Assembly: GCA_963823335.1 (NCBI GenBank)
Contig: CAWGLD010000001.1
Span: forward strand, 928,001-992,000
Direction of reading: 5' to 3'
Length of the DNA stretch: 64,000 nucleotides
Source of the DNA: an uncultured delta proteobacterium
GTDB taxonomy: Bacteria; Desulfobacterota; Desulfobacteria; Desulfobacterales; B30-G6
Part shown: positions 5,460 through 36,548 of the stretch, piece after piece
How positions within the stretch are numbered: the first letter of the stretch is position 1
Layout: each line of letters starts with the position of its first letter
Made by a program: the position numbers and the translations under genes
The notes under the pieces: generated by a model
Database searches by the model: none
The model's input: the letters and a program-made list of their open reading frames with translations, nothing else
What the model was told of the DNA's origin: nothing

Positions 5460-5460
5460 T

Positions 5461-16244: not shown

Positions 16245-16279
16245 TCTTACGTCATCTGCTGCGATCCAAATTAAAAAGA

Positions 16280-16308
16280 TTGACATCCTCTCCATAAAAG
16301 AATAGGTT
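16280..16308 (+). promoter_or_regulatory. Candidate sigma-70 promoter of the kinase pair
   Basis: TTGACA-17 nt-TAGGTT, about 290 nt upstream of ATG 16602. Confidence 0.45.
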
Positions 16309-16601
16309 AATTTCCCGAAATAACTTCATGTTCTTATGGTTGTGTCTCGTTGTAGTACTTGCGTTATCTCTGAATTCTCCTTTCGCCCGGTACCCACAGC
16401 GTGCCAGTCTGTGAACTGTTGTTGAATAAGCCCGTGGCTTATCAGAAAATCCGCTTTATCGGGGTTGCGGTTTTGACGAACGAATCTGAATCAGACATAA
16501 TTCCTTTCGGTCGCTTTTAAGCACCGCCGCACGGCAGAAGATTCCTCGCAACTTGTGGGAGGAATCTTCAAGTTCTTCTAAATGTATGGTCAGGAGATAC
16601 G

Positions 16602-18086
16602 ATGCGTACTGAAAAAGAAATCGAGTACCTTTTAAAAGCCATCGATGCATTCCAGAGAAAAATCCTTGTCGTCACATCTGACTTTAAAATCCTGGCCTCA
16701 AATGTCCCCCTCGACAAGCTATCCGAGTCCAAAGATAATGGAAACACCTGTCACGAACTTTTTTATGATCGCCCGTCACCTTGCGAGAACTGCGCTGTCA
16801 AAGCAACCAAAGAAAGCCTCTCGCCGTCCCTGTGTCCCAAGCCTGACAGCTTCATTCTCGAAGGCAGTTTACCCTGTTTTTACGCCTATCCCATCATGGA
16901 CGGCAATACCGTGGAGGCCTATGTCAGTATGGACTTTCAGATCCCCAGCATAGGGCTGTTGGAAGAAGAGCTGCACCGCACCAACGCGCTATTGGAAAAC
17001 CTCCTTCTGAGTGCCGTCGATTGTGTGATCGCAGCCGACATGAAGGGGAATATTTTTCTGTTCAACGCATCCGCCGAGGAACTCTTCGGATACAGCAAGA
17101 AAGAAGCCAGAAACAGTATCAATGTACGCGACATCTACCCGGGAGACGGTGCACGTCAAGTGATGAAACTGTTGCGAAGCGATACCTATGGAGGTAAAGG
17201 GCGTCTAAAAACCTATCATACCAATGCTCTTTCCAAATCAGGAACAGAGATACCTATCAGCCTTTACGCATCTGTCATTTATGAAGAAGGCAAGGAAGTT
17301 GCTACCATTGGATTTTTTCATGATCTCAGGGACCGGATCCGGATCCAGAAAGAATTAGACGACACGCAGGTGCAACTATTACAAGCCGAAAAAATGTCTT
17401 CCCTGGGAAAACTGGCGGCAGGTGTTGCCCATCAGATCAATAATCCCCTGGGGGGTATTACCCTTTTTGCCAAGCTGATGCTGGAAGAATACACCCTTGA
17501 AAAAGGTGCTCAAGAAGATTTGCACCGCATTTTAAGAGATGCCGAGAGATGCCAGAACACGGTCAAGGAACTGCTCGAGTTCACCCGCCAGACACGGCAT
17601 CTGATGCAACCCAACAACATCAACGAAGCACTGAATCGAACACTGTTTCTTCTTGAAAATCAAACTCTTTTTCAAAATATTGATATCAAGAAAGATTTTC
17701 AGCCGGATCTTCCCCTCGTTGTATCCGATGCACAGCAGCTGTATCATCTGATGATGAACATCATTCTCAATGCAGCCCAAGCCATGGATGGCAATGGTGC
17801 GCTTCACCTTAAAACCTATCATCTGGAAAAACAGGCTCGTGTCTGCATCGAAATTTCCGACACGGGTCCGGGGATACCCGAGGAAGCCCTGCCACATATC
17901 TTTGAACCTTTTTTTACTACCAAGGATGAAGGCAAAGGAACCGGCTTAGGGCTCAGCCTGGCATACAATATCGCCGAAAGCCACGGAGGTAGGATGTCCG
18001 CCAGAAACAACCGGGAAAAGGGCGCCTCGTTTATTATCGAGTTGCCATCTGCTTCTAAAGATCAGAAAGGAGACGAGCGTGAATGA
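16602..18086 (+). CDS. PAS-domain sensor histidine kinase (NtrB-like)
   Basis: Cys-containing N-terminal PAS-like region, a second PAS domain, H-box AAGVAHQINNPL, N-box NIILNAAQA, DTGPGI, FEPFFTTK and GTGLGL. Confidence 0.92.
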   Translation: MRTEKEIEYLLKAIDAFQRKILVVTSDFKILASNVPLDKLSESKDNGNTCHELFYDRPSPCENCAVKATKESLSPSLCPKPDSFILEGSLPCFYAYPIMDGNTVEAYVSMDFQIPSIGLLEEELHRTNALLENLLLSAVDCVIAADMKGNIFLFNASAEELFGYSKKEARNSINVRDIYPGDGARQVMKLLRSDTYGGKGRLKTYHTNALSKSGTEIPISLYASVIYEEGKEVATIGFFHDLRDRIRIQKELDDTQVQLLQAEKMSSLGKLAAGVAHQINNPLGGITLFAKLMLEEYTLEKGAQEDLHRILRDAERCQNTVKELLEFTRQTRHLMQPNNINEALNRTLFLLENQTLFQNIDIKKDFQPDLPLVVSDAQQLYHLMMNIILNAAQAMDGNGALHLKTYHLEKQARVCIEISDTGPGIPEEALPHIFEPFFTTKDEGKGTGLGLSLAYNIAESHGGRMSARNNREKGASFIIELPSASKDQKGDERE

Positions 18087-19575
18087 CAGCGCTGAAGCAT
18101 TGCAGGTTCTCATCGTGGATGACGAACAGGATATTCGAGAAGGCTCGGAACGAATCCTCATCCGTATGGGTTTCAAGGTGTCCAAGGCCGCCAATGGACA
18201 AGAGGCCCTGGATGTCTTTCCAAAGATAAAACCCACAATCGTTCTGCTGGATCTCAAAATGCCGGGCATGGACGGTATGGAAGTCCTGGAGCGGCTCAAA
18301 AAAATCGACCCCGCCATCATCGTCATCGTCATCACCGGCTATGCCACGGTGGAGACTGCTATCCAGGCAATGAAACAGGGTGCTTATGATTTTATCCCCA
18401 AGCCCTTTGAACCAGATCAACTCCGACTCATTGTCAACCGGGCAGCGGAAAAAATCCGTCTTGAAATGGAAGCGGAAAAGCTGACCCGGGAGCGCCAGCG
18501 AACCCTGCTGGACTTGGGAACTGAAAAAAGCCGTATCCGCACGATCCTCGAGTCACTCCCCAACGGCGTCCTGGTAACCAATACTCTGGGACGGGTCGTT
18601 TTAATGAACCCAGCCTTCAAGCAACTCCTGGGGTTCGATGCGGATTATCCCCTGGGTGAAAGCATCGAAAGATACCTTCCCGATGATGGCTTGTGCAAGC
18701 TTGTCATGGAAATTTCCAAAGGCAGGCATATCGACTTTGAAGACATTCCGGAATATGAGTTCTCTTTTTCCAAAGAACAGTATTTCATGGCCAAGGGGCG
18801 TCCGGTATTAGGACAGAAAAAGGAATGCCTGGGTGCTGTGGTAACGGTGGTGGACATTACCGCACTGAAAATGATTGATCTGCTGAAATCTGAATTCGTT
18901 GCCAAGGTGTCCCATGAACTGCGGTCTCCCCTCTCCACCATTCACGAACAGCTTGCCGTTGTTCTGGGCGACATGATGGACATCGCACCTGAAACCGACC
19001 AGAAAATCCTCGGCCGAGCCAAGGAAAAGACCCACAGCCTCATTTCCCTGATAGGCGACCTGCTTGACCTCTCCAGAATCGAAGAGGGCGTTATCTGCAA
19101 AGAACCCGTACCGGTCCAGGTCGACGTCTTATTGAAAAACATCATCGATTTCCTCAAGGACAAGGCCATTGCCAAGAAGCAGACATTGAGCCTGGAAATC
19201 ATGGGCGATCACCTCCCGGAAATGCAGGCAGACCCGATAGCCCTGGAAAGCGTCTTTGGCAATCTCATTGCGAATGCCATCAACTATACACCCGAAAACG
19301 GCCATATCCGCGTTACGGCCGAGGTGGCCGGCATCAATATCAAGGTGAATGTCATCGACAATGGGTTTGGGATAGAAGACAAGCATCTGGGCCAGATCTT
19401 TGAGCGGTTTTATCGCGTCAAAAACAATCAGACACGCTATATCACGGGAACCGGTCTGGGGCTCCCCATCGTGAAAGAACTGGTCCAGGCACTTGGCGGG
19501 TTTGTCGAGGTAGAAAGTGAGTTTGGCAAGGGGTCGGCATTCACGGTGCTACTTCCGGTAGCCTTGAACACCTGA
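18079..19575 (+). CDS. Hybrid receiver-PAS-histidine kinase
   Basis: REC domain (IVDDE, LLDLKMP, KPF), PAS domain, H-box SHELRSPL, NLIANAI.Y, DNGFGI and GTGLGL. Confidence 0.92.
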   Translation: MNDSAEALQVLIVDDEQDIREGSERILIRMGFKVSKAANGQEALDVFPKIKPTIVLLDLKMPGMDGMEVLERLKKIDPAIIVIVITGYATVETAIQAMKQGAYDFIPKPFEPDQLRLIVNRAAEKIRLEMEAEKLTRERQRTLLDLGTEKSRIRTILESLPNGVLVTNTLGRVVLMNPAFKQLLGFDADYPLGESIERYLPDDGLCKLVMEISKGRHIDFEDIPEYEFSFSKEQYFMAKGRPVLGQKKECLGAVVTVVDITALKMIDLLKSEFVAKVSHELRSPLSTIHEQLAVVLGDMMDIAPETDQKILGRAKEKTHSLISLIGDLLDLSRIEEGVICKEPVPVQVDVLLKNIIDFLKDKAIAKKQTLSLEIMGDHLPEMQADPIALESVFGNLIANAINYTPENGHIRVTAEVAGINIKVNVIDNGFGIEDKHLGQIFERFYRVKNNQTRYITGTGLGLPIVKELVQALGGFVEVESEFGKGSAFTVLLPVALNT

Positions 19576-19737
19576 GCTAAAAATTTCAAATTCCTATTTT
19601 TGGAACAACTTATAGTAAAATCGTCTTGTTCATCGGCTCTGCTGCAGGCTCTCGGCTGTTCTCGTTAAACCGGCCAACAACTGAGAACAAAGAGCGAAGG
19701 AGCTTGCCCCTTGAACCCTCCAAACCTCCACCCCTTT

Positions 19738-20553
19738 TTAATCCCCTTCAATAGCCGAAATAAACTCTTGCGGTGGTACCTGTAGGCCGGTCCATAGGGC
19801 AAAGGTTCTGCGAGCCTGATAGGCAAGCGGCATTAGACCATCCAGAAATCGAATCCCTTTGTCCTCGGCAGCCTTCTTCCAGAAGTTTTTCGGTCGGTCG
19901 TAATTGAGGTCCATCATCATTTCACAGGCTGGTAACTCCAAAGAGGCCACCAAGGCTGCCATTTCAGAAGATTCATCCATGCTCGAAACAGATGTGGCGT
20001 TGATGATGATATCAACCGGTATTCTCTGTCCCTCCAGGGAAGAGAGTGTTCTTGCTTCTCCCCCGAAGCGTTTCACCATCTGCTGCAATTTCTCATCGTC
20101 GCGCCCCGCTACAAAAATAGTTTTTGTGCGCAGCCAGTTCAGGATAAAAACAACCGCCCGGGCTGCTCCCCCGGTACCGAAAACCATGGCCGACTTGTCT
20201 TCGACGTCAAAACCGGCATAGGACAAGGCGTCCATAAATCCGATGGCATTGGTGTTGTATCCCTTGAGCTTGCCTTCAATGAGAACGATGGTGTTGACGG
20301 CCCCAATGATATTGGCACCCTCGGACAGGATATCCAGATAGGGAATGACCGCTTCCTTGTAGGGTATGGTAATGTTCGCACCGGCCATGTTCAGGATGCG
20401 AAGACTCTGAAGGGCCTGACCCAGATGCTCTGGTGCAACCTTGAACGGCACATAGATGCCTTTGATACCCATCCGCTTGAATACCATTGAAAATATCGCT
20501 GTGGATTTTGCTCGATATGCCCGTTCGTCAGAGATGATGCAATAGACTTGCAT
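19738..20553 (-). CDS. Shikimate dehydrogenase (AroE)-like protein with altered active site
   Basis: GANITIPYKE, IGAVNTI, GTGGAARA, INATS and DLNY are present, but NTD reads NTN and the HSxSP motif is absent. Confidence 0.8.
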   Translation of the reverse strand: MQVYCIISDERAYRAKSTAIFSMVFKRMGIKGIYVPFKVAPEHLGQALQSLRILNMAGANITIPYKEAVIPYLDILSEGANIIGAVNTIVLIEGKLKGYNTNAIGFMDALSYAGFDVEDKSAMVFGTGGAARAVVFILNWLRTKTIFVAGRDDEKLQQMVKRFGGEARTLSSLEGQRIPVDIIINATSVSSMDESSEMAALVASLELPACEMMMDLNYDRPKNFWKKAAEDKGIRFLDGLMPLAYQARRTFALWTGLQVPPQEFISAIEGD

Positions 20554-20603
20554 AATTTTTTGAGCCCGGTTTTATCAATACACACATGAAAAATCCATAA
20601 ATT

Positions 20604-21920
20604 TCATGAAGTTTCAGGGTTTGGGTACGGATTCACATCCACCAGATCCGGACCCAGATAAGTACGCTCGTTTTCTCCCAGAATGCCCATGGCCAGACAC
20701 ATGATGGTCCAGAGATGTAAGGTGTGGTAGTCCCCCTTGTAATGCTCTTTCAGGTCATGAATTTGAGAATGGCAGTTGTGACATGGTGTGATACAGTAGG
20801 TTGCCTTGGTTTCCGCTATCTGTTCAAATTTTCTACGGCCATAATACCGCCGCTCTTCCGGTAGCCCGGATTGAAGAAAACCGCCGCCGCCGCCACAACA
20901 AAAATTGTTGGAGCGGTTAGGTGTCATATCGATGAAATTCTCTTCCCCTACAATAGACTTGACAATAAAACGGAGGTCTTCCGCTATGGGATCCCCAAGT
21001 GACTTTCTCACCAGCTGGCAGGGATCCTGGACCGTGAATTTGACGCCCAGTTCCTTGTTCCAATCCGAGTTGACCTTCAACTTTCCTTCACGCATCCACT
21101 GCGCGTAGTATTCGATGATTGATTTGACTTCAAACGTATGTTCGATGTTGAACTTGTTCAGTCCGACCCGGACCGAAAAAAATTCATGCCCTCACTCCGT
21201 ATTGAGCCAGACCTTACACCCCAAATCCTCCACGGCCTTGGCTTTTGTTCGAACATTTTTTTCCCACTTCTCGTTATCGGCCAGAAACAGACAGTAATTC
21301 TCCGCTGCCCACCCTTTTGAACCATAGGTCCAGTCCGCACCCACCGTATGGAGAATTTTCCATAGTGGCACCATCTCATCCGGTTCCGTCACGGGCTCCC
21401 GGGAGTTCTGGTTCAGGAAAAATTCAGCCCCGGCCCTATTGATCGAGGCCTGCATCTCTTTGAATTCCGGTTGGGCTTCCTGATATTCTTCCAGCACATC
21501 TTCCACCACGAAGATAAAATCCTCTTCGGTTGCCCCCATGGCACTGCAGGTCTCGTTCTTAAAAGACATTTCACACGATCCATGAATGCCTTTCGGCAGA
21601 TCGTCCTTGGGCCATCGGTTTCTTACATTGAAAACAAGACCTGGAATATCGATTTTCATGGGGCAGGCGTAAATACACCGCTGGCACATGGTGCACATCC
21701 AGGCCCACTTGGAACTCAGGACCTCCTCATCGAGCCCGAGTGACGCCATTCTCAAAAATTTTCTCGGGTCCATCCCTTCCAGTCCAGTGGCAGGACACCC
21801 GGAGGAACAAAGACCGCAGGTCAGGCAGAGATTCAGGTTTCCGCCCTCGGGCAGAATTTTCATAACCTCGTCTTTGAAGATGCTCTTGCTTTTTTTTAAC
21901 TCCAGAACCGGCATTGACAT
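20604..21920 (-). CDS. HdrD/DsrK-like (Fe-S)-binding CCG-domain protein, predicted selenoprotein (Sec243, 438 aa)
   Basis: ORFs 21192..21920 and 20604..21095 are in the same frame and joined via TGA 21192-21194 (WLNTE-U-GHEFFSVRVG...QWMREGK). Two CxxCxxCxxxCP motifs, DPC, CCGGGGG and PCHNC. Confidence 0.9.
21157..21177 (-). promoter_or_regulatory. Bacterial SECIS-like hairpin of the HdrD-like gene
   Basis: UUCGGUCCG-GGU-CGGACUGAA, a 9-bp stem starting 15 nt after the UGA, with a G-initiated loop. Confidence 0.8.
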
Positions 21921-21993
21921 GCTTGACTCCTCACAGTTTCGGACATCAGAAATAAACCGTATGCTTCATCGAATCAGATCGGTCTTGCCCTGT

Positions 21994-22383
21994 TTACATG
22001 TTGAGCATCTGCCTGATACTTTGGGAAATCGCTTCCGCAGAGGCTGGTTTGGCGATATAATCATCTGCTTCCGTACTCATGCCGTCGGCATGGGAATAGC
22101 GGGTAGAGGTCACATGGGATGCCACGGCAGTCAGCAACAGCACCGGAATATCGCAGAGATTGCTGTCTGCCTTGAGTTCCTTGCACATCTCGTAACCATC
22201 TTTTTCCGGCATCATAACATCGAGCACAATAGCATCCGGGGGATTGGCTTGAACCTTTTCCATGCCCTCCACACCATTGTAGGCCAGTTCAACTTCGAAT
22301 CCTTCCTTTTCAAGCTGCCCCTGAACAATGGAGCAGAAGTCAGGCTCATCGTCTACCACCAGTATTCTTTTTTTATCTGTCAT
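21994..22383 (-). CDS. Single-domain response regulator (receiver only)
   Basis: LVVDDE, VLDVMMP, LLTA and YIAKP. GAGG RBS before ATG 22383. Confidence 0.92.
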   Translation of the reverse strand: MTDKKRILVVDDEPDFCSIVQGQLEKEGFEVELAYNGVEGMEKVQANPPDAIVLDVMMPEKDGYEMCKELKADSNLCDIPVLLLTAVASHVTSTRYSHADGMSTEADDYIAKPASAEAISQSIRQMLNM

Positions 22384-22480
22384 GGAAAACCTCCTCTTTA
22401 TAACGTTAAACACCGCACTGATGACCCTCGAACCTTTGACTGAGATCAACTTTTCAAGATGATCAACAACAGGCTTATTC

Positions 22481-23410
22481 CTAAATCTGGGGTCGTGGGT
22501 ACAGACCTGTCTTTTCTACGATCTCGGGAACCTTTTCCTCCCATTCGATGGCCATGACGTGAAATCCGCTGACACCCTCCACCTCTTTCAGGCGTTGAAT
22601 ATCCTCGATGCAGATTTTGATACCTTCTTCGGCCTGTTTTTCCTTAGGCGTATCTGACAGGCGCTTGACCAGTTCATCGGGGACATCCATTCCCGGAACA
22701 CGGTTTTTCATGTATTTGGCCATTCCCGCAGATTTCATGGGTGTCATGCCCGCCAGAATATAGACCTGTTCGTGCAGGCCGCGATCTCTAGCCAGCTTCA
22801 TCCACTCTTCAAACTTATCCAGATTGTAGATGCACTGTGTCTGAATAAATTCTGCGCCAGCCTTGATCTTCTTGGCAAGTCTCGGAACACGAATTTCAAA
22901 GGGATCTGCAAAGGGATTTGCAGCGGCGCCCACGAACATTTGGGGCGGCCGCTTGATATCATCACCCCCCAGAAATTTTCCTTCGTCTCGCATGTGGCGA
23001 ACGGTCTGGACCAGCTGCATGGAATCCAGATCGTGAACATTCTGCCCTTGTGCACAGTCTCCAAAACTCTGATGGTCACCTGAGAGACACAATATGTTGG
23101 CAATATCAAAGGATGCGGCACCCAGAATATCGCTCTGAAGAGCGATACGATTTCGGTCACGTGTCACCATTTGCAGCACCGGCTCCAGCCCCATGAGCTT
23201 GAGACGGATACAGGCGGCCAGGCTGCACATGCGGGTTACCGACGTCTGGTTGTCCGTGATGTTGATAGCATCCACATGATCCTTGATCAGCTCGGCTTTC
23301 TTGATAATGGTATCCGGATCACTGCCGCGTGGCGGACCACACTCTGAGGTTACGGCCAGATGTCCGGCGGAGAGAATTTTTTCCAAGCGACTCGGTGTCT
23401 TCGTTTTCAT
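22481..23410 (-). CDS. metF: Methylenetetrahydrofolate reductase, catalytic subunit
   Basis: ECGPP, NITDN, QMVTRDRNRIALQ, LCLSGD, KIKAGAEFIQTQ and GFHVM. Confidence 0.95.
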   Translation of the reverse strand: MKTKTPSRLEKILSAGHLAVTSECGPPRGSDPDTIIKKAELIKDHVDAINITDNQTSVTRMCSLAACIRLKLMGLEPVLQMVTRDRNRIALQSDILGAASFDIANILCLSGDHQSFGDCAQGQNVHDLDSMQLVQTVRHMRDEGKFLGGDDIKRPPQMFVGAAANPFADPFEIRVPRLAKKIKAGAEFIQTQCIYNLDKFEEWMKLARDRGLHEQVYILAGMTPMKSAGMAKYMKNRVPGMDVPDELVKRLSDTPKEKQAEEGIKICIEDIQRLKEVEGVSGFHVMAIEWEEKVPEIVEKTGLYPRPQI

Positions 23411-24075
23411 GGTTGCACATCCTCCCTCACGACTTTTCTGGGTCCACCTGCCCGGTCGGTGGACCAGTCTTTGATCGGACTCAGATCTTCATATTCTTCG
23501 AATCTGTCCAGAGCCTTGAGACGCTCGACAATCAGTTGCCAGGCACATACCAGTTCCTTGTTTATTTCACACATTCCCTTGCTGGAACCGCCGCAGGGTC
23601 CATTCATGACGCGTTTTGCACATCGGGAAACCGGACAGATACCGCCTGTTCGGGATAGAATGCACTGACCGCAGCCCTGGCATCGCTCGGCCCAGTGGCC
23701 TCGCTCTTCGGTCACGCCCATAAAACAGGTGTCCACCCCAGGATAAATGGGTGTTGAATGGTATTTTTCGGCGGCAAACTGGACACCCACACCACAGGCA
23801 ATCGACACGATGGCATCGTACTGATCAACGACATTGCGGATCTCTTCGAGATATTCGTGATCACACTGACGCTCAAGGGTGTTTTCATCGATCTTCATTT
23901 CCTTGCCCTGGTTCAGAAAATACATGCGCAGGGCCGAGGCCAGAATGCCTACTTCCTTTTTTCCTCCAGCTTCACAGACCGTTACGCACTCATTGCATCC
24001 CAGCACCAGGATTTTATTATGGTCCTTGATGTCCTCAATAATCTCTTCAATCGGTTTTTTGTCGGCGACAATCAT
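23407..24075 (-). CDS. metV: Methylenetetrahydrofolate reductase Fe-S/Zn small subunit
   Basis: GCNECVTVC, RQCD, ACGVG, CQGCGQC...GGICPVSRCAK..MNGPCGG...G.CE...CAW. Overlaps the metF start. Confidence 0.92.
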   Translation of the reverse strand: MIVADKKPIEEIIEDIKDHNKILVLGCNECVTVCEAGGKKEVGILASALRMYFLNQGKEMKIDENTLERQCDHEYLEEIRNVVDQYDAIVSIACGVGVQFAAEKYHSTPIYPGVDTCFMGVTEERGHWAERCQGCGQCILSRTGGICPVSRCAKRVMNGPCGGSSKGMCEINKELVCAWQLIVERLKALDRFEEYEDLSPIKDWSTDRAGGPRKVVREDVQP

Positions 24076-24119
24076 AATTTCATCCTTTTACTTTCCATAA
24101 ACAGATCGGTTATATGAGC

Positions 24120-24551
24120 TCACGCTGCTTTTTTTTTCTGCAACTTGATCGGATTCGGTCCGAGTTCCTTAATCCGTTCCACCATTTTGACCGCCACCTC
24201 TGCGAACAGGGGGCCTTCGCTCGACGCCATGTTGAACATCTCCACACGCTGGCTGCCCACACCCACGGTGTCGAGTATCTTCTTGGCCTGCTCGATCCGT
24301 TTTCGTGCCCTGAAATTCCCACTGGTGTAATGGCAGTCGCCTTCCATGCAACCCACGGCATAGACTCCGTCGGCCCCCTTTTCAAAGGCTTTTAAAATAT
24401 GCAAGATATCGACCTTGCCGGTGCAGGGTACACGAATGATTTTGATATTCGTGGGGTATGTCAGTCGCATGGAACCTGCCAGGTCCGCGGCTGTGTATCC
24501 TCAGAAGTTACAGCAAAATGCGATAATGATCGGTTCAAACAATTGACTCAT
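24120..24551 (-). CDS. mvhD: MvhD-type [2Fe-2S] subunit, predicted selenoprotein (Sec17, 143 aa)
   Basis: ATG 24551 overlaps the hdrA stop. Reads [17 protein letters not shown](TGA 24501-24503)-GYTAADLAGSMRL, in frame with ORF 24120..24470. VPCTG, GADGV and GCMEGDCHY motifs. Confidence 0.93.
24467..24488 (-). promoter_or_regulatory. Bacterial SECIS-like hairpin of mvhD
   Basis: GC-GGACCU-GGC-AGGU(U)CC-AU-GC, with the loop about 21 nt after the UGA. Confidence 0.7.
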
Positions 24552-27500
24552 AAGACCCCCTCCAGCAAAGCTTCTATCTTGCAGATCAGTTGATCATCTT
24601 GATACCAATTCAATTCTATGGCCTTGGCCGGGCATTCCGATGCGCATACCCCGCACCCCTGGCACATGGCGATGTCTATTTCACTCACCCCTTCCTGGTT
24701 GATTTTCGGGACCCCATAGGGGCACGAACGAACGCATACGAGACATGAAGCACATTGATCAGCGTCTACCCAGGCCGTAATGGCTGACAATGTCAGCTCC
24801 GGCTGGGCAAGAAATGTAATAGCCCGGGAGGCGGCGGCACTGGCCTGGGAAATGGTTTCAGATATTAATTTGGGGCTGTGGGCCGTACCGCAGACAAAAA
24901 TGCCTTCCGTGGCCATATCCACCGGTCTCAGCTTGACATGCGCTTCCATGAAAAAACCTTCCGGTGTTCTGGCAAGCTTGACGATGGAAGCGAGCTCAGA
25001 CGTGTCTTCGGCAACCATGCCTGCGCTCAGGACCAACTTGTCCGCCGTTACCATCAACGGTCGATTCAAGACATGATCAAAAAATGTCACCTGCACGCCA
25101 TCTTGCGATGATGCCACCTGAGGCGGGTTCTCCGGTGTATAGCGGAAAAACAGAATGCCCTGTTTTCTGGCCTCTGTATAGTACTCTTCCAGGAGTCCAT
25201 AGGTCCGAATATCCCGGTATAGGACATAAATGCTGGCATCCGGATGATCTTTGCGGATATGCAATGCATTCTTGATGGCGTTCTGGCAGCAGATACGCGA
25301 ACAGTTGGGGTTCTCGTCATTTCGGGATCCAACGCACTGAATCATGACCACCTGCTCCAAAGAACCCGACGGCACATCATCCAGGTGCTGGGCGAATTCC
25401 ACCTGGGTCATGACCCGGTCGTCTTCTCCGTACAGATACTCTTTGGGCTGATATTCCTTTGCGCCGGTAGCCAGTATTACAACGCCATGCTCGATTTTTC
25501 GTTCGTACATACCCGGTCCAACCAGAACTTCCGTGGTGAAATTGCCCTTGAAACCGGAAAACCCCACAATCAGGGACTGAGTCAGCACCTGGATTCTTTC
25601 ATGGGTCATCACACGGTCCGAAAGCCGCGTCAGATAAGGCTGAATTTCGGCGCCTTCAATGGTGGCCTTCAGCTGGTTGGCCATACCCCCCAGACGATTC
25701 TCTTTCTCCACCAGAAACACCTCGTATCCCTGGTCTGCAAGTCCCAGGGCGGCATTCATCCCGGCAATGCCGCCACCCACCACCATGGCTTTTTGAATGA
25801 CCGGGATGGTTTTTTCCTGGAGTGGATGGAGGGTTGCTACCCTGGCCACGGCCATGCGTACCAGATCCTTTGACTTTTCGGTGGCTTCCTCGGCTTGTTT
25901 GGCGTGTACCCATGATCCCTGGTTACGAATATTCGCCATTTCGAAAAGATATTTGTTCAGTCCGCATTCCCTCATCGTATCCATAAAGATCGCTTCATGT
26001 GTTTTGGGCGTGCAGGCGGCCACGACGATACGGTTGAGGTTCTGCTCCTTGATGATTTCCTTCATCTGGCCCTGAGAATCCTGGGAACAGGTAAAGAGAT
26101 TCTGCCCAACATATGTGACATACGGCAATGTTTTTGCATAGGCTTCCACGGCAGCCACATCCACGACACCGGAGATATTGATCCCGCAGTTGCAGACGAA
26201 TACGCCAATCCGGGGTTCTGCGTCACTCACATCGATTTCTTCCGGCAGATCGACCGAGCGGGTCAAGGTGTTTCGAACCGCTGCAAGGCTTGCACCCGCC
26301 GCACAGGCAGCGGCCGAGGCCTCCGTGACGGAGCTGGGAATGTCTTTTGCCTCCTGAAAGGCACCGCAGACATAGACACCGGGACGCGATGTCTCCACCG
26401 GTGAAAACGGATGGGTCACGGCAAAATGATTGTGATCCATCTCCACATCCAAGCGCCGGGCCAGATCAATGGTCTGCTCCGACACCTGAAGACCGACAGA
26501 AAGTACCACCATGTCGAAGAATTCTTCCTGCATTTCGCCGGCCTCGTCTGCATAGCGGATACGAAGATCTTTCGCTTCTCCAACCTCATCGATGGTATGC
26601 ACCCGGGCCTTGACAAAATTCACGCCCTCCTGGTCCTTGGCTCGAAGATAATATTTTTCAAAATCCTTCCCGAACGTCCGGATATCCATGTTGAAAATGG
26701 TGCAGTCCAAGTTGCCCTGGGCATGCTCCTTGGCCACCATGGCGTCCTTGATGGCATACATACAGCAAACAGAAGAACAATATCCATTACCGCACTGGTT
26801 GTTGTCCCTGGAGCCGATACACTGAAGCCAGGCAATACGCTTCGGCTCTGTTTCATCCGAAGGCCTGATCAGGTGCCCCATGGTCGGACCGGAGGCGCTC
26901 AGCATCCGTTCGAATTCCAGGCTGGTCATGACATTGGGATTCGTTCCATAGTGGTAATGCTTTTCAAGAACAGTGGGGTCGTACGGGCGGCTTCCCGGGC
27001 TGAGGACCACGGAACCCACCTGGATCTCCTTTTCCACGACAGCCTGGTCATGTTCCACGGCACCGGCCAGACATGCTTCTACGCACTGGTAGCATTCTGA
27101 ACAAATCCCGCAGGAAAGACAGCGATTGGATTCTCTTTGCGATATGGCTTCATCGAAACCGAGTTGAACCTCGTTGAAATTGGAGACTCTTTGATCCGGC
27201 GACATGCAGGGCATCTCTTCTTTGGGCAGTTCAGCTACACCCTCCAGGGGCACCTCGTCAATCGGAACCCATGCCTTTTCCCTACCGGCTGAAAGGTCTG
27301 TCCCGCAAACAAATCGATCGATGGATATGGCAGCCTCTTTTCCCGCAGCCACGGCTTCCACAACCGTTGCCGGCCCCGTGACGGCATCCCCGCCTGAAAA
27401 GATATCCGGATCATTCGACTGCAGCGTTACGGGATCCACATTGATGGTTCCCCAATCGCTCAAGGTGCAGGCACATTCATCCGTCAGACAGGCCCAGTCA

Positions 27501-29002
27501 CTTTCCTGGCCAATGGCCGGAATCACTGTATCAACTTCGATGGTAAATTCGGATCCTTCAATGGGTACAGGTCGGCGACGGCCGCTGGCATCGGGTTTAC
27601 CCAGTTCCATTTTAATACATTCCAGCGCTACGACCTTCCCGTTTTCACCGATAATACGCACCGGACTGGTGAGGGTCATGATGTCAATACCCTCTTCCCG
27701 GCATTCTTCGATCTCTACATCATTGGCGGGCATCTCCTCGAAGCTCCGCCGATAAATGACAAACGGTTTGGAAGAACCGGTCCTCAGGGCCGTGCGAACC
27801 GAGTCCATAGCCACATTTCCGCCGCCGATCACGGCTACCCGGTCTCCCAGCTGAACCCTGTTTCCAAGATTGACCTCACGCAGAAAATCAACGCCTGGAT
27901 AAACACCCTCCTGCTCTTCTCCTTCAACACCCAGGACTTTGCATTCATGAGACCCGATGCCAAGAAAAAAGGCCTTGAATCCGTCCTTGCGCAATTGGTC
28001 GATGGTGATGTCTTTTCCGAGCTCGACACCCGTTTTGAATTGAACCCCAAGATCCTTGATTATTTGAATTTCACTTTCGATGATATCTCGTGGCAGACGG
28101 TAGGATGGAATGCCGACGGTCAGCATACCGCCCAGCACCGGCAGTTTCTCAAAGACCGTGACCTGGTAGCCTTCTATGGCCAGGAAATACGCGCAGGTCA
28201 AGCCTGCCGGCCCTGCCCCGATAATTGCTATCTTTTCAGGTCGTTTTGCTTTCTGTTCCGGTACAAAGGGGGCTTTTGCTTCAAGATCCCTATCCGCCAG
28301 AAAACGATGCAGATACTGGATGGACAAGGTTTTGTCCACTTGGTTTCTGGTACAGGCGCCTTCACAGGGATGATGGCACACCCGGCCGCAGACCCCTGGG
28401 AAGGGATGGTCCTGTTTGAACAGTTTCAGTGCTTCCAAATATTTCCCAGACTGAATAAGGGCAATGAATCCCTGGACGCTTACATGTGCCGGACAGGAGA
28501 CCTTGCAGGGCGCCGTACCTCTTTTTTCGATGGCAAAAGCGCCTGGAATCGCCTGGGGATACTGCTTGAAGGCCGCTCTTTTGTCTGAAAGACGTTCATT
28601 GTAGTCGTCGGGCAGGGATACCGGGCAGACCTTTGTGCATTCACCACAACTTGTGCATTTGGCGATGTCGATATACCGTGGCGCCTGACGGATCCCGGCA
28701 GTTAAATTACCCGGTTCTCCTGTGAGAGACATGAGTTCGGTATTGGTTAGAAGTTCGATGTTGAGATGCCGGCCGACCTCGACCAGTTTGGGTGAGATAA
28801 TTCACATGGCACAGTCATTGGTTGGAAATGTCTTGTCCAGCTGTGACATCATTCCACCGATCGCGGAGGATGATTCAACCATGTACACATAATAGCCTGA
28901 ATTGGCTAGATCCAGGGCCGATTGCATACCTGCGATGCCACCACCGACCACCATGACCGAACCGACCAAATCCTTTTTGTGATCACCTGATTGTTTCGTC
29001 AT
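24548..29002 (-). CDS. hdrA: Large HdrA-family flavoprotein (HdrL type: two HdrA modules plus a GltD-like NAD(P)H module), predicted selenoprotein (Sec67, 1484 aa)
   Basis: ORF 28802..29002 ends [12 protein letters not shown] at TGA 28802-28804 and continues in frame ([23 protein letters not shown]) into ORF 24548..28732. Two GGGIAG and two QC.GSR...CS..CC motifs, GltD-like CGRVC..PCE/GAGPAG/GGGNVA, and several ferredoxin motifs. Confidence 0.93.
28769..28786 (-). promoter_or_regulatory. Bacterial SECIS-like hairpin of hdrA/L
   Basis: CUGGUCG-AGGU-CGGCCGG, a 7-bp stem starting 16 nt after the UGA. Confidence 0.75.
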
Positions 29003-29012
29003 TTTTGATTCC

Positions 29013-29882
29013 TTAAACCCTTTTCAGTATCGCCGGGAGCTTATCTTCCCACCCGATTGTGGAAAGCTGCACACCGCAAAAGCCTTCCTTTTTTAGTGTT
29101 TCAACCATTTCTGAAGCAATTTTAATACACTCAGCGACCTTGTCTGGTGCCTTTTGGAGACGCTGGATCAACGAATCGGGAATGAATGTGCTGTTTACAT
29201 TGCGGGATATATAGCGTGCCATTCCAAGGGATTTGAGCAGCAGAACCGTCGGGATTATTTTGGTTTCTGTGCGGTCCACACGCTTGAGAAACGGTTCGAT
29301 GGTGGACAGGTCAAACAAGGGCGGGGTTATGAAAAACGCCGCGCCGGCTTCTTTTTTCTGATCCATCTCTTCCCGTATCAGTTCCGGTGACTTGTCTCTT
29401 GCTCCGGCATCGACGGTTGATCCCACCAGAAAGGTGGGCGCACCATTGAGCTCGATACCGGCCATGTCTCTTCCATTCTGAAGCCCCCTAATGGCTTTCA
29501 ACAGCTCCGGTAAGTCAATATCATGCACCGCTCTGGCCTGGTGGTGATCGCCGAAACTTGGATCTTCTCCCCGGACAACCATTACATTTCGAATACCGCA
29601 ACCATTGGCCGCCAGAAGATCCGCCTGGATGGCGAGACGGTTGCGATCCCTGCAATTGACCTGCATGACCACATCCATGCCCTTAGACTGGAGGATCATA
29701 CCGCATCCCAGGGAACTCATCCGCATCACAGCGTTACGCATCTCCGGTACAACGAATGCATCGACGATTCCTTTAACTCTCTGCGCATTTGCAACCATTG
29801 CGGAAACATTCACCCCTTTGGGGGGTTCCATTTCTACAAGAACGGCAAATTTCCCTGCTTCTAATTTCTGTTTTAGACTCAT
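29013..29882 (-). CDS. Divergent MetF (methylenetetrahydrofolate reductase) paralog
   Basis: [26 protein letters not shown] and K.EAGA.FFIT, clearly homologous to metF at 22481-23410. GGAGG RBS. Confidence 0.88.
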
Positions 29883-30040
29883 GGGTTACCTCCGAATAAA
29901 GCCGGCGTCCGGTGCTATAAAACCCGCGGTTCCCTTCAACATCGGGACGTGGGCCATGCGAGAGAAATCTTGGGTCGTAAGGTATCGGTCTATTTCAGAT
30001 TCGCTCGCTGTTGCGGTTCAGATGTGTTAACAGACTGCAT

Positions 30041-30057
30041 AGCAATGACTGTGCCAA
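30041..30057 (-). promoter_or_regulatory. Sigma-54 (-24/-12) promoter of the metF'-hdr operon
   Basis: The minus strand reads TTGGCACAGTCATTGCT, matching TGGCAC-N5-TTGC(W), about 160 nt upstream of ATG 29882. Confidence 0.85.
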
Positions 30058-30163
30058 AGCCCCTGTTAATTGCGGAAGGCTAAAAGAACCTATACTATCA
30101 AACAACTATCTTCTTTTACGATCGAAAGTGCACACAAGTATCAGGTCTCGTGGATAGGACGGC

Positions 30164-30254
30164 TGTGCCATTTTGGAACATAGCTTCATATTTCTGTTGT
30201 ATTGTTGAGAGATTGGATGGTATGTGCCATATTGGCATACGCCAAAGTGGCAGG
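30164..30254. promoter_or_regulatory. Candidate enhancer (UAS) sites for the sigma-54 activator
   Basis: Related dyads TGTGCCA-TTT-TGGAACA (30164-30180), TGTGCCA-TAT-TGGCATA (30223-30239) and TACGCCA-AAG-TGGCAGG (30238-30254). Confidence 0.6.
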
Positions 30255-30325
30255 GCAGTGACCCCTTGTCGGCCGCACAGGTATTTCAACATCGTTTCAA
30301 CTGTTTCCCAGATAGGAGGAAAGGT

Positions 30326-31696
30326 ATGGAGCCACATATTCTTGTGGTGGATGATGACCGTGATTTTCTTGAAATCATGAAACGTCGCCTTAAAGATCTC
30401 CATTTCAGGCATGTACATCTCAATGAAAATCCATTCAAGGCGGCATCCCTCATAGAAACCGGTAAACATATTGACCTGGCACTGCTGGACATGACCATGC
30501 CCGACATGACCGGGCTGGAACTTCTGGATATCATAAAAAAAATAAGCCCTGTCACCGAGGTCATTATCATCACGGCGGTGGACGAAGCCAGAACAGCTGT
30601 GACATGCCTGCAAAAAGGCGCTTATGATTACCTGATCAAACCGGTATCAAAGGAAGATCTGGCCTTGTCCATTCACCGCGCTCTGGAGCACAAACTGTTG
30701 CTGGATCTCCGAGATATCGGAAAGCAGCAGGCCGTACCCCGTCTCAAGGACAAAGAGGCCTTCAAAGAAATCAATACCGTCTCAAAACGCATGATGCGGG
30801 TTCTCAAGGAGGCCGAGCTACATGCCGTTAGCGATGTTCCTGTGCTCATCACCGGTGAAAGCGGCACGGGAAAAGAGTTGCTTGCACGAGCCATTCACCA
30901 GGCCAGCCCCAGAAGAACCCACCCATTTACAGCTATCAACATGGCCTCTCTCAACGGAAATCTGTTCGATGCCGAGTTTTTTGGACACACAAGAGGCGCC
31001 TATACAGGAGCAGAAAAAGACCGGGCCGGATATCTGGAATACACCCACAAGGGGACCCTTTTTATGGATGAAATTGGGCTTCTTCCCCTAGAGGTTCAGG
31101 GAAAGCTTCTTCGGTTTATGCAGGACGGCAGGTATCTCAAGCTGGGAACCAGCGCCGACAAACACGCGGATGTCCGTTTTGTTGCCGCTACCAACACCAA
31201 CCTGGAAAATCGCATGAAGCAACGACAATTTCGGAAAGACCTTTTTTACCGTATCCGAGGTGGATGGTTGCATCTACCTCCCCTGCGGGAACGCAAAAAG
31301 GATATTCCGCTGCTGATACGGACATTTCTTTCGACCCATTACGACCTCGACAAGGGAAACAGTATTACACCTGAGGCTATTGATATTCTTGTAAATTATG
31401 ACTTTCCCGGCAATGTGCGGGAACTCAAAGCCCTTGTACAGTCGGCTGCTAATCTTGCCCAGGGAAAACCCATCTCGCCCCGATTTCTCCCGGAATCCAT
31501 CCGCCGTCGAAAACAGCTCAAGACCACGGCGCTGGCGCCAGGCGCAGCGCCCCTCACATCCCTGGGCGTGGTGGAAAAAATCCATATTCTTCATGCTTAC
31601 CGGCAACTGGGGAAAAACAAATCCCAGACGGCCAGGATCCTGGGGATCGGTCTGAATACCCTGCGAAGAAAACTCGCCCTGTATGGGGAAAAATAA
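30326..31696 (+). CDS. Sigma-54-dependent response regulator (NtrC family)
   Basis: REC domain, GESGTGKE, GAYTGA (GAFTGA variant), LFMDEI, FRKDLFYR, FPGNVREL and a Fis-type HTH. AGGAGG RBS before ATG 30326. Confidence 0.95.
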   Translation: MEPHILVVDDDRDFLEIMKRRLKDLHFRHVHLNENPFKAASLIETGKHIDLALLDMTMPDMTGLELLDIIKKISPVTEVIIITAVDEARTAVTCLQKGAYDYLIKPVSKEDLALSIHRALEHKLLLDLRDIGKQQAVPRLKDKEAFKEINTVSKRMMRVLKEAELHAVSDVPVLITGESGTGKELLARAIHQASPRRTHPFTAINMASLNGNLFDAEFFGHTRGAYTGAEKDRAGYLEYTHKGTLFMDEIGLLPLEVQGKLLRFMQDGRYLKLGTSADKHADVRFVAATNTNLENRMKQRQFRKDLFYRIRGGWLHLPPLRERKKDIPLLIRTFLSTHYDLDKGNSITPEAIDILVNYDFPGNVRELKALVQSAANLAQGKPISPRFLPESIRRRKQLKTTALAPGAAPLTSLGVVEKIHILHAYRQLGKNKSQTARILGIGLNTLRRKLALYGEK

Positions 31697-31697
31697 A

Positions 31698-32384
31698 TCA
31701 GATCACCAACTGTTTGAATATCTGATAGACGAGTGGAATAAAAATGGCTGGAAGCATATTGCCAATCTTGAGTTTTTTTATCTCCAGGAGGTTGATTCCA
31801 ATGGCCAGAATCAGCAAGCCCCCGACTGCTGACATCTGTACTACGACACCTGGAATCAGAAACTGTTTCAAAACGGATGCCGCCAGTGTGATGGTTCCCT
31901 GGTAGACAAAAACCGACACGGCGGAAAAAATCACCCCCAAACCGAGGGTGGAAGCAAACAGGATCGAGCCAATGCCATCCAGGAGGGATTTGGCAAACAA
32001 GGTCTGGTGGTTGCCGGACAGCCCGCTCTCCAGGGAACCCACAATGGCCATGGCTCCCACACAATAAATCAGGCTTGCCGTCACAAACCCATTGGCGATG
32101 CCCTCTTTGTCTCCTGACACCAGGCGCCCCAACCATTTTCCCAATCGTTCTAGCCGGTCTTCGATGCGCAGCAATTCGCCGATAGCACTGCCGATGGCCA
32201 GGCTGATGATAATGAGTAAAATATCATCGGTTTTGAGGGCTGTTTTCAGGCCGATCAGAATCACGGCAAGACCGATGCCGTGCATAATGGTCTGGCTGTA
32301 TTTTTCCGGAATACTGCCCTTGAAAAGAAGCCCGATGAGGCTTCCTGCGATGATTGCTACGGTGTTGACAATGGTCCCGAACAT
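31698..32384 (-). CDS. DUF554 family membrane protein
   Basis: GTIVN..AI..GSLIG, GFVTASL.YCVGAMAI.GS and KSLLDG. Confidence 0.88.
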   Translation of the reverse strand: MFGTIVNTVAIIAGSLIGLLFKGSIPEKYSQTIMHGIGLAVILIGLKTALKTDDILLIIISLAIGSAIGELLRIEDRLERLGKWLGRLVSGDKEGIANGFVTASLIYCVGAMAIVGSLESGLSGNHQTLFAKSLLDGIGSILFASTLGLGVIFSAVSVFVYQGTITLAASVLKQFLIPGVVVQMSAVGGLLILAIGINLLEIKKLKIGNMLPAIFIPLVYQIFKQLVI

Positions 32385-32538
32385 GGGAATCGTTCCTTTC
32401 AGTCAAATGTCATTGATGCACCTCGCATCAAACACTGTGACATACCCAAATATCTTGGAAAGAACAATCACTAAATAACATCGCTGCGTGCTGTTATCAG
32501 ACCCGTCGTTGCCGCTTTAAAACATGTGGTTATCGGCA

Positions 32539-32736
32539 TCATTTCTTCTTAAAGATCGGACATCGCCTACACATCTTTTTGAGTTGTAGTACGGTCTCAT
32601 CAGACAACAGAAAAAGATGATCCTGGTTTATAATACTCAGACCCATAATAGCGTTCGTCTGATACGGGCAGACCATAGTGTTCCAGTTTTCACAACGTGC
32701 AAACAACAATTCGGGGGTAATATAATGATCAATCAT
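32539..32736 (-). CDS. Small Cys-containing hypothetical protein (65 aa)
   Basis: AGGAG RBS 8 nt before ATG 32736. C-x7-C...CxxC pattern. Fills an otherwise empty gap. Confidence 0.5.
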   Translation of the reverse strand: MIDHYITPELLFARCENWNTMVCPYQTNAIMGLSIINQDHLFLLSDETVLQLKKMCRRCPIFKKK

Positions 32737-32894
32737 GTGGTCGGCTCCTAACCCGATCATGACTGCACGCAAATCTGAAATGTGCAGATAAAAAGACTGA
32801 TCACAAGATTGTCAGATTACGATAGGAATTCAATGCCGAATAACTGCGGTTTAACTACGGATTTTAATTAGGCAGACTGGTTACGCGGCGTAAA

Positions 32895-33815
32895 TTACCG
32901 TTCCCCGCGCTTATAGGGCTCACCCAGCATGGCAGGCGCATTCAGTTTTCGCCGATCCCCCAGACCAATGATCAGCAGCACCGCCAATGTCGTCAGATAG
33001 GGCAGCATGGCCAGAAAATTGGGCGAAACACCCAAGGGCTGCAACAGATACTGAAGCACGAATATTCCGCCGAACAGAAAGGCACCGATGATGGCCCGTG
33101 TGGGATTCCAGAGCGCAAAAATGGTCAGAGCGATGACGATCCAACCCCTGCCGGCTGTCATGCCTTCAATCCATGACTTGCTGTAGGACACAGACAGATG
33201 GGCTCCGGCCATGCCCGAAAAGGCTCCCCCTGCCAGAACACAGGCATACCGTATCCAGGAGACATGAATTCCCTGGGCCTCGGTGGCCTTCGGGTTTTCC
33301 CCGGTGGATCGAATCTTGATGCCGATCCGCGTATGTTCCAGGGTAAACCACGCCGCAACGGCCAGAAGGATCGCCATATAAAAAAAGGGGCTTTGGCTAA
33401 AGAAAATGGGACCCACAAAGGGAATATCGGACAGAACCGGTATGGGAAACGTCTGCATTTTGACCACAAGCGGTTTGCCCACATAGGGTTTGCCCGCCAA
33501 CCCGGAAATGCCAAGCCCCAGCATGGTCAATGCCAGACCGGACACCACCTGATTCGACTGCAGGGTTATGGATGCAAAGGCGTGAACCAGTGAAATCAGC
33601 ATGCCGGCCAACACGGCGGCATAAAGCCCGAGCCAGGGGCTGTTGGTATAAAACGTGACAATGAAGGCCGTTACCGCCCCGATGGACATAACACCCTCTA
33701 CGCCCAGATTCAGAATTCCGGACCTTTCACAGAGGATCTCTCCGATGGTTCCCAAGAGCAAGGGGGTACCGGCGACCAATGTACGCTGGGCAACAGAAAT
33801 GATGATGTCTTCCAT
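32895..33815 (-). CDS. ABC transporter permease (BMP/nucleoside-type)
   Basis: GE...ERSG.LNLGVEG, GENP.A....GI.V and GRGWI.IAL. Confidence 0.92.
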   Translation of the reverse strand: MEDIIISVAQRTLVAGTPLLLGTIGEILCERSGILNLGVEGVMSIGAVTAFIVTFYTNSPWLGLYAAVLAGMLISLVHAFASITLQSNQVVSGLALTMLGLGISGLAGKPYVGKPLVVKMQTFPIPVLSDIPFVGPIFFSQSPFFYMAILLAVAAWFTLEHTRIGIKIRSTGENPKATEAQGIHVSWIRYACVLAGGAFSGMAGAHLSVSYSKSWIEGMTAGRGWIVIALTIFALWNPTRAIIGAFLFGGIFVLQYLLQPLGVSPNFLAMLPYLTTLAVLLIIGLGDRRKLNAPAMLGEPYKRGER

Positions 33816-33830
33816 AAATCATACCCTATA

Positions 33831-34922: not shown

Positions 34923-34940
34923 AAACCGCTTTGCAGGCCT

Positions 34941-36482: not shown

Positions 36483-36501
36483 TCGTATTCCACAAAAAGA
36501 A

Positions 36502-36530
36502 AATGGGGGCTGCCCAAGGTCAACCCCCAT
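36502..36530. terminator. Intercistronic hairpin after the substrate-binding protein gene
   Basis: ATGGGGG-CTGCCCAAGGTCAA-CCCCCAT stem between the BMP and ATPase genes. Confidence 0.45.
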
Positions 36531-36548
36531 ATATTTTTGAAAGGGTCC

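Follow-up and report, generated by a model that had tools for sequence, protein, structure and literature searches.

Organization of the locus

The DNA studied here is a stretch of 64,000 nucleotides (nt) from the genome of an uncultured delta proteobacterium of the Desulfobacterales (GenBank assembly GCA_963823335.1, contig CAWGLD010000001.1, positions 928,001 to 992,000); we call the whole stretch the window, and positions given without the name of another locus or contig are window positions. We found that it carries eight minus-strand genes running from 29882 down to 19738, three of which are read with TGA as selenocysteine (Sec), and which together may encode a methylene-tetrahydrofolate reductase built on the HdrA-type flavoprotein HdrL, accompanied by a receiver protein and two altered enzyme paralogues (Table 1). 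An earlier note on this DNA had described these genes as co-directional and tightly spaced, and all eight were recovered on the minus strand where it had placed them, with the expected domains. Specifically, the gaps from metF' to metV are 10 nt, a 4-nt ATGA overlap, by which mvhD overlaps the stop of the hdrA-type gene hdrL directly upstream, and 44 nt; those from metV to aroE-like are another 4-nt ATGA overlap, 97 nt, 73 nt and 50 nt. The 97-nt gap between metF and REC shrinks to 31 nt if a TTG start is used. A terminator-like hairpin occupies 19697-19712, 26 nt past the aroE-like stop, and a scan of 19400-30400 for sigma-70 promoters and terminators gave counts not above those of shuffled sequences and hence no usable evidence for the operon limits.

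Table 1. Features of the operon and its regulatory genes in the window, and the fusion gene of three related loci
Feature	Position	Strand	Description
metF'	29013-29882	-	PF02219, 101 bits; first gene of the operon; divergent paralogue of the methylene-tetrahydrofolate reductase (MTHFR) family
hdrL	24548-29002	-	1484 amino acids; apparently a pair of HdrA-like units, the first of which holds an inserted NfnB/GltD-like NAD(P)H module
hdrL Sec codon	TGA 28802-28804	-	Residue 67, context 'DCAM-U-I'
mvhD	24120-24551	-	PF02662, 166 bits
mvhD Sec codon	TGA 24501-24503	-	Context 'CCNF-U-GY'
metV	23407-24075	-	PF12225 (DUF5981), 123 bits; iron-sulfur partner of MetF
metF	22481-23410	-	PF02219, 126 bits; methylene-tetrahydrofolate reductase catalytic subunit
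REC	21994-22383	-	PF00072; receiver-only response regulator, conserved insertion before beta-5
hdrD-like	20604-21920	-	HdrC-like two-cluster ferredoxin domain and one CCG domain
hdrD-like Sec codon	TGA 21192-21194	-	Residue 243, context 'NTE-U-GHE'
aroE-like	19738-20553	-	PF08501 and PF01488; shikimate dehydrogenase fold, catalytic Asp replaced by Asn (NTN)
Sigma-54 type -24/-12 element TGGCACagtcaTTGCT	30041-30056	-	174 nt upstream of the metF' ATG
Divergent NtrC-type sigma-54 activator	30224-31696	+	REC, Sigma54_activat (PF00158, 201 bits), AAA lid, HTH_8
HK1, PAS histidine kinase	16602-18086	+	PAS, HisKA, HATPase_c; convergent with the operon
HK2, hybrid REC-PAS histidine kinase	18079-19575	+	Response_reg, PAS, HisKA, HATPase_c; convergent with the operon
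Fusion protein of about 670 amino acids	L121 2783-4810; L128 5006-7015; L126 about 4025-5878		MTHFR and DUF5981 domains

Conservation among relatives and a paralogous cluster

We fetched 23 neighbourhoods from relatives, three of which break off no more than about 50 nt upstream of the aroE-like gene. The other 20 could be assessed, and in every one of them the genes, from aroE-like through REC, metF and metV onward, stand in the same order and orientation as in the window, and metF', the NtrC-type gene and both kinase genes are also present where the contigs reach far enough. A scan of one genome per species yielded 28 more loci (48-65% identity to the aroE-like protein, the next values being 35%), all from Desulfobacterales-type or related genomes; at least one contig occurs in both sets (L031 = L041). 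The full eight-gene order, for which the earlier note had suggested looking across the phylum, thus stood among these relatives except for hdrD-like, which lies between REC and aroE-like in 15 of the 20 loci and is absent from the other five. The same gene is absent from most of the wider locus set, and it is optional rather than a fixed part of the operon. Twelve loci were taken from elsewhere in the phylum. The order metF'-hdrL-mvhD-metV-metF is retained in seven, two of which also have aroE-like, the kinase pair and the activator; one of the 12 has no metVF in reach and one is too short to assess. In a locus of the same genus (L012), hdrL, metF', HK2 and the NtrC-type gene each match as two overlapping tblastn pieces, which suggests frameshifts or assembly errors.

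The same genome carries a paralogous hdrL-mvhD-hdrD-metV-metF cluster on contig 1 (1680349-1688215; L001 8346-16215), with tblastn identities of 61% for hdrL, 62% for mvhD, 73% for hdrD-like, 50% for metV and 63% for metF. It retains the three Sec positions, contains no metF', REC or aroE-like gene, and is divergent from a Sec formate dehydrogenase gene split by TGA (L001 4702-7491). The presence of this cluster favours the view that HdrL, MvhD, HdrD and MetVF act in concert. Many relatives hold two or three such clusters, and an ACS/CODH gene is present in the genome.

Part of the stretch is also contained in 16 RNA runs labelled estuary metatranscriptomes. Contigs of four RNA libraries, 95-99% identical, cover 28-30 of the 30 bins of 16000-32500, some of them spanning the metF'/hdrL, hdrD/REC and REC/metF junctions. 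The region is present in RNA libraries, and we take the data to say no more than that. A depth spike at 28673-29223, over the conserved HdrA N-terminus, is seen in all four libraries and probably sums transcripts or DNA of many organisms.

Selenocysteine codons

The in-frame TGA codons of the three putative selenoprotein genes are either conserved among relatives or replaced by Cys codons. The hdrD-like TGA occurs in 17 of 17 sequences compared, that of mvhD in 19 of 20, with Cys in the remaining one, and at the 'DCAM-U-I' position of hdrL the N-terminal HdrA-type matches have TGA in 36 cases and Cys in 7. The genome encodes the necessary machinery, with a tRNA-Sec gene on contig 6 and a SelA match of 524 bits, and hairpins begin 8-18 nt after each UGA, although their folding z-scores are weak (-0.2, -0.7 and -2.0). 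Judged from the conservation of the codons, the three Sec codons are real, as the earlier note had read them. In Desulfobacterium autotrophicum, Sec has previously been reported in hdrL1, hdrL3, hdrD4 and several mvhD genes (PMC2702500).

HdrL and the HdrD-like protein

Comparison of HdrL with family models (HdrA/HdrA2) and with solved chains (HdrA) gave matches in four stretches in each case, and the N-terminal FAD segment is repeated near residue 1068, there without the Sec/Cys position; HdrL therefore appears to be a fused pair of HdrA-like units. Over about residues 160-660 the family models that match are of the GltD/NfnB type, and among solved structures residues of about 160-640 match chains of NfnA, NfnB, GltD and dihydropyrimidine dehydrogenase. 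The first unit is thus predicted to be interrupted by a complete NAD(P)H-FAD-[4Fe-4S] module, and the GltD-like NAD(P)H insert previously proposed for HdrL is supported by NfnB/GltD matches that fall inside the protein.

The best NCBIfam matches of the HdrD-like protein are HmcF, TmcB and DsrK, with E values of 1e-51, 2e-48 and 8e-34 among them and all far below the cut-offs. It shares its ferredoxin-plus-CCG architecture with these DsrC-linked proteins, but differs from them in these low scores, in having no membrane partner encoded, in containing Sec and in being encoded with metVF. Pfam sees a single CCG domain (residues 296-387), and HdrB aligns to profile positions 256-413 only, so the two-CCG architecture of an HdrD/HdrBC-type disulfide reductase is lacking. 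The region upstream of the CCG domain contains 'E-U-G' and lacks the later Cys pair; we infer that 'E-U-G' may be a degenerate version of the CCG motif that carries Sec. When solved structures were searched with a profile made from the HdrD-like alignment, it aligned with nothing but HdrC and, in HdrB, the C-terminal CCG half, and the Sec could therefore be assigned to no known cluster ligand. The operon contains one fused HdrC/CCG gene in place of separate hdrB and hdrC genes. The suggestion that this fused protein replaces HdrBC therefore fits the window, but it fails to cover the five relatives' clusters from which the gene is missing.

MetF, MetV and the divergent paralogue MetF'

The overlapping metF and metV genes (22481-24075; PF02219 and PF12225) encode the folate enzyme proper. 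Relatives carry up to three MetF classes, of which the cluster type is the most conserved, at 81-97% identity across orthologous clusters. MetF' matches PF02219 over its full length, at 101.2 bits against a cut-off of 24, and keeps the conserved Glu; however, compared with MetF, GD(H) has become GE(D), QTQ has become TPP or is variable, the TDNQT of MetV-partnered MetF has become PEMxNA, and LAGxTP has become PTVxLL. The roles of these residues are presumed from those in Escherichia coli MetF.

Pairwise ratios of nonsynonymous to synonymous substitution (dN/dS) were 0.06-0.08 for metF', 0.01-0.06 for metF, 0.02-0.05 for REC, the most constrained accessory gene, and 0.04-0.17 for aroE-like, and ranged from 0.01 to 0.17 over the set of these four genes with metV, mvhD and hdrD-like, which did not include hdrL. 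Because purifying selection is this strong, metF' and aroE-like are not decaying. Of 401 genomes from across the phylum, 117 contain matches to metF' at E values of 1e-65 or less; 40 of these matches are full-length, at 52-100% identity, and the weaker ones may include ordinary MetF. We thus regard metF', on sequence grounds, as a subfamily found across the phylum. The description of this MetF as degenerate is right in that active-site motifs are altered, but wrong if decay is meant. When longer, fused relatives of metF' were sought, the sole type returned was the known fusion of homocysteine methyltransferase with MTHFR (36% identity).

The aroE-like protein

The aroE-like protein resembles AroE in both domains and in overall sequence, and matches solved shikimate dehydrogenases at an E value of 1.7e-39, but it falls below every AroE equivalog cut-off (best 182.6 bits against 252; TIGR00507 174.1 against 200.2). 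Its motif reads NTN instead of NTD in 55 of 56 loci, the window included. Lys66 ('PYKE') is Lys in 54 of the 56 and Gln in L126 and L128, where both residues of the Lys/Asp pair are consequently gone; we take this Lys and the Asp of NTD to be the catalytic pair of AroE. The claim of an altered AroE is therefore upheld, and even extended by the additional loss of Lys in two members. The protein retains the GxGGAARA Rossmann loop, the Arg that follows the second strand and most of the residues that contact the substrate; this Arg, present in most members, is presumably the residue expected for the 2'-phosphate.

A further difference from AroE is that the gene lies outside a shikimate operon and is linked to the receiver gene and two kinases. 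A canonical aroE, its product 30% identical to the aroE-like protein, is present elsewhere in the genome. Orthologues of aroE-like (51-96% identity) occur in 23 of 41 relatives' genomes, separated by a gap from ordinary AroE matches (at most 35%), and an ordinary AroE match is found in 22 of these 23 as well, the exception being a genome that is 74% complete. The sole relative with NTD (L056) is 50% identical to the protein of the window, and its gene lies between those for EPSP synthase and shikimate kinase/dehydroquinate synthase. The surrounding segment (L056 1452-10399) is a true aromatic operon, with trpB, trpA, an amidotransferase gene, DAHP synthase, aroA, aroE, an aroK-aroB fusion, aroC and aroQ. 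Since the NTD copy sits in a real aro/trp operon, the aroE-like clade derives from a working AroE, and it is the cluster-linked copies that are marked by the Asp-to-Asn change.

Taken together, these features indicate that the aroE-like protein probably does not act as a conventional enzyme and that it is most likely a ligand-binding protein, for NADP(H) and a shikimate-like acid, rather than a working dehydrogenase. A predicted complex of the aroE-like protein with REC scored 0.01, which weighs neither way on binding. In L048 (3424-5519) the aroE-like gene follows a GAF-GGDEF gene. The search for longer, fused relatives returned one only, a 499-amino-acid GGDEF-plus-shikimate-dehydrogenase protein (P0004, 58% identity) on a single 1.9-kb contig, which may be a real fusion or a gene-calling artefact.

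REC and the fusion reductase

REC is 69-99% identical across loci. Among the 55 NTN loci it lies no more than 3 kb upstream of aroE-like in 46 of 50 that could be assessed, and it lies further upstream in L126 and L128. In clusters that lack the aroE-like gene, nothing recurrent was found among the genes after REC. A third cluster type (L115 and L120) consists of hdrD, metF', a double HdrA that lacks the NAD(P)H insert, mvhD, metV, metF and REC, and continues with two kinases and a shorter sigma-54 activator-like gene.

Three loci (L121, L126 and L128) have a different layout, in which metF' and REC are followed by a protein of about 670 amino acids, aroE-like, HK2 and HK1, without hdrL or mvhD. 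The N-terminal domain of the 670-residue protein matches the operon's REC (27% identity, E 4e-12) and shares its unusual insertion, but it is without the acidic pocket and its Pfam receiver score is weak (E 0.004 and 0.12). Its domain order thus reads as a pseudo-receiver-MTHFR-MetV fusion. This layout indicates that metF', REC, aroE-like and the kinases are a unit which can accompany reductases of both kinds, and their staying together even without HdrL points to regulation rather than extra catalysis. In L121 metF' is directly preceded by a gene of the pterin-binding methyltransferase type (63-959; PF00809), which hints at a link to methyl-group transfer.

Promoter, activator and kinases

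The claimed -24/-12 promoter with a divergent NtrC-type activator was confirmed in its parts. The element TGGCACagtcaTTGCT follows the pattern TGGCAC-N5-TTGC, with the GG and GC elements at consensus spacing; the activator has a PF00158 domain and contains GAYTGA, its start being likely the ATG at 30326 (MEPHILVVDD); and rpoN is present in the same genome (PF04552, 207 bits). Counting an element when its score was at least 13 of 14, we found one in 18 of 31 orthologous metF' upstream regions and in 6 of 500 random windows. The convergent kinase genes HK1 and HK2, which add to the earlier description of the locus, in most loci remain together beside the cluster. A second, TGGCACATACCATCCA-like motif lies at about 30229 on the minus strand, 347 nt upstream of the metF' ATG, and several genomes of the genus have it at the same distance from metF'. 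This motif may be an activator site or part of the divergent gene. Beyond the activator, 31698-37703 encodes a DUF554 membrane protein, whose place next to the activator is conserved only inside the genus, and then an ABC transporter with a Bmp/PnrA-type binding protein.

Comparison with known systems

In the MetFV-HdrABC-MvhD complex of Moorella thermoacetica (Mock et al. 2014, as cited in PMC5861303 and PMC6085437), as here, metF, metV, mvhD and an HdrA-type flavoprotein are encoded together, and the folate couple is proposed to be linked to flavin-based bifurcation. However, the window operon has the optional fused selenoprotein in place of separate hdrB and hdrC genes, its HdrA is the fused double unit with the NfnB/GltD-like insert, and it adds a MetF paralogue, a receiver protein, an aroE-like protein and its own sigma-54 two-component control. 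The Moorella enzyme is an NADH-dependent physical complex.

HdrL itself has a precedent in D. autotrophicum HRM2, whose HdrL is an HdrA/glutamate-synthase fusion followed by mvhD (PMC2702500); likewise, HdrA and a glutamate-synthase-small-subunit-like NAD(P)H domain are present here in one polypeptide, with mvhD next. The text of that paper, apart from its figures and supplements, does not tie hdrL to metF, metF', a receiver gene or an aroE-like gene; the legend to its figure 4 names a 'CheY-like regulator', a 'response regulator' and a 'histidine kinase', which the text does not discuss (PMC2702500).

The closest working model for HdrL-MvhD-HdrD would be, by analogy, the BamDEF part of class II benzoyl-CoA reductase. 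In Geobacter metallireducens, BamE is a fused HdrA dimer with bifurcating features in the first FAD only, the MvhD-like adaptor, BamF, carries its Sec (Sec19) beside the [2Fe-2S] cluster, and the HdrBC/HdrD-like exit, BamD, often shows a disrupted distal cluster site and has an electron-transferring flavoprotein as its acceptor (bioRxiv 10.64898/2026.04.10.717634). The fused HdrA dimer with bifurcating features in its first unit only, the MvhD-like adaptor with Sec and the HdrBC/HdrD-like exit with one non-cubane site altered are thus common to both. In contrast, the partner enzyme is MetVF here and the tungsten enzyme BamBC there, NAD(P)H would enter through the HdrL insert here and enters through BamGHI there, and the exit subunit of the window carries Sec in 'E-U-G', the putative degenerate CCG motif.

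HdrA or HdrABC genes beside metF in sulfate reducers have already been published (PMC10553843). In the full-text literature searched, PMC5109826 included, but with figures, supplements and most subscription journals outside it, we found no description of the metF'-to-aroE-like operon with REC and optional hdrD, nor of the fixed Asp-to-Asn AroE, the kinase pair with activator or the pseudo-receiver fusion.

Proposed function and alternative explanations

We consider it fairly probable, from gene content and conservation, that the operon encodes an inducible HdrL-MvhD-MetVF methylene-tetrahydrofolate reductase with a conserved regulatory and accessory set under sigma-54 two-component control. 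The two PAS histidine kinases would feed the sigma-54/NtrC control of the operon. MetF with MetV would interconvert methylene- and methyl-tetrahydrofolate, and electrons would pass through MvhD, with its [2Fe-2S] cluster and nearby Sec, to HdrL, where flavin-based bifurcation or confurcation would connect the folate couple with NAD(P)(H), entering through the built-in module, and with a second partner. In this genus, the HdrD-like selenoprotein may be a second, higher-potential exit, the partner of which might be a DsrC-type thiol/disulfide or, on the model of BamDEF, an electron-transferring flavoprotein. The NAD couple lies at about -320 mV. Given an E0' of -200 mV for the folate couple (PMC5861303), oxidation of the methyl group with NAD(P)+ would thus need coupling to a higher-potential acceptor, which a bifurcating HdrA unit together with an HdrD exit could provide.

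Several observations weigh against this explanation. Many orthologous clusters lack hdrD-like, which leaves their second exit unexplained; the aroE-like gene occurs without the cluster in L046 and L048, where REC is missing, and the core cluster occurs without the aroE-like gene in L116-L119. An element scoring at least 13 is absent from 13 of the 31 metF' upstream regions, and neither cluster of the genome adjoins the ACS gene. Cover in the RNA libraries is similar over kinases, activator and operon, with carried-over DNA possible, and therefore shows neither induction nor co-transcription, a contig that spans two genes not being equivalent to one transcript. Finally, the mapping of MetF' and aroE-like residues onto E. 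coli numbering is presumed.

MetF', REC and the aroE-like protein are best read, from their sequences and linkage, as a regulatory or ligand-binding trio. More tentatively, we propose that together with HK1 and HK2 they may form a metabolite-sensing device made from two retired enzymes, one reading the folate one-carbon pool and the other NADP(H) or a shikimate-like acid, with non-catalytic MetF' and aroE-like sensors and the NtrC-type activator setting both expression and activity of whichever reductase gene is their neighbour. Control would then act on two levels, on transcription through NtrC/sigma-54 and on activity through docking of REC on MetV/MetF, for which the pseudo-receiver fused to an MTHFR-MetV protein is a hint. 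The company that the three genes and both kinases keep in L121, L126 and L128 in the absence of hdrL and mvhD, the match of the fused domain to REC including the insertion and without the acidic pocket, the strong constraint on REC, and the loss of catalytic residues from an aroE-like protein that keeps its Rossmann loop and most substrate contacts are all in line with such a device. However, the weak Pfam receiver score of the fused domain speaks against it; with its conserved Glu and a GDH motif in place, MetF' may yet be catalytic, and its position as the first gene of an enzyme operon would fit a subunit equally well.

That last point leads to a reading we regard as doubtful, in which MetF' is a second catalytic or structural subunit that teams up with MetF, giving an asymmetric MetF/MetF'/MetV assembly docked on the likewise asymmetric, fused HdrL, and the aroE-like protein is a working NADP(H) enzyme with a new substrate, which consumes or supplies the NADPH handled by the NfnB-like insert. 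In nearly every such cluster metF' precedes hdrL or hdrA, those without aroE-like included, both proteins are under purifying selection, and Lys66, the GxGGAARA loop and the presumed 2'-phosphate Arg are kept in most aroE-like members. Nevertheless, the paralogous cluster has a fused HdrL and no metF'; in MetF' the Asp of GD is replaced by Glu, the Gln of TQ by Pro or variable residues, and TDNQT is lost; and in L126 and L128 neither residue of the catalytic pair of the aroE-like protein remains.

It seems unlikely that the operon is instead the main methylene-tetrahydrofolate reductase of the Wood-Ljungdahl pathway, with the paralogue beside the Sec formate dehydrogenase serving otherwise and the regulators only tuning expression. 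The high conservation of cluster-type MetF, the ACS/CODH gene and the presence of the region in RNA libraries would agree with this, but a sigma-54 activator of its own and a pair of kinases are found more typically with inducible functions, two or three such clusters occur in many relatives, and neither cluster stands beside the ACS gene. Lastly, that the aroE-like protein is an ordinary biosynthetic shikimate dehydrogenase merely adjoining the operon is highly improbable despite its strong match to the solved enzymes and its conserved substrate contacts, given the nearly universal replacement of the catalytic Asp, the scores below every equivalog cut-off, the separate canonical aroE in 22 of 23 genomes, the conserved linkage to REC, and the fact that the only NTD relative is the one inside a real aro/trp operon.

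Significance

The loss of the Asp, the linkage to receiver and kinases and the pseudo-receiver fusion together suggest phospho-dependent control of a folate enzyme, of which we found no report in the literature searched. With regard to energy metabolism, the inducible HdrL-MvhD-MetVF reductase proposed here is relevant to the question of what drives methyl-tetrahydrofolate oxidation, an uphill reaction, in complete-oxidising sulfate reducers, and to that of the second electron partner of MetFV-Hdr enzymes, which for the Moorella complex is still listed as unknown (PMC5861303). The system is compact and conserved, with a predicted NAD(P)H entry in HdrL, an optional exit, up to three versions per genome and a dedicated regulatory circuit, and may therefore be a good place for testing the direction, partners and control of these enzymes.

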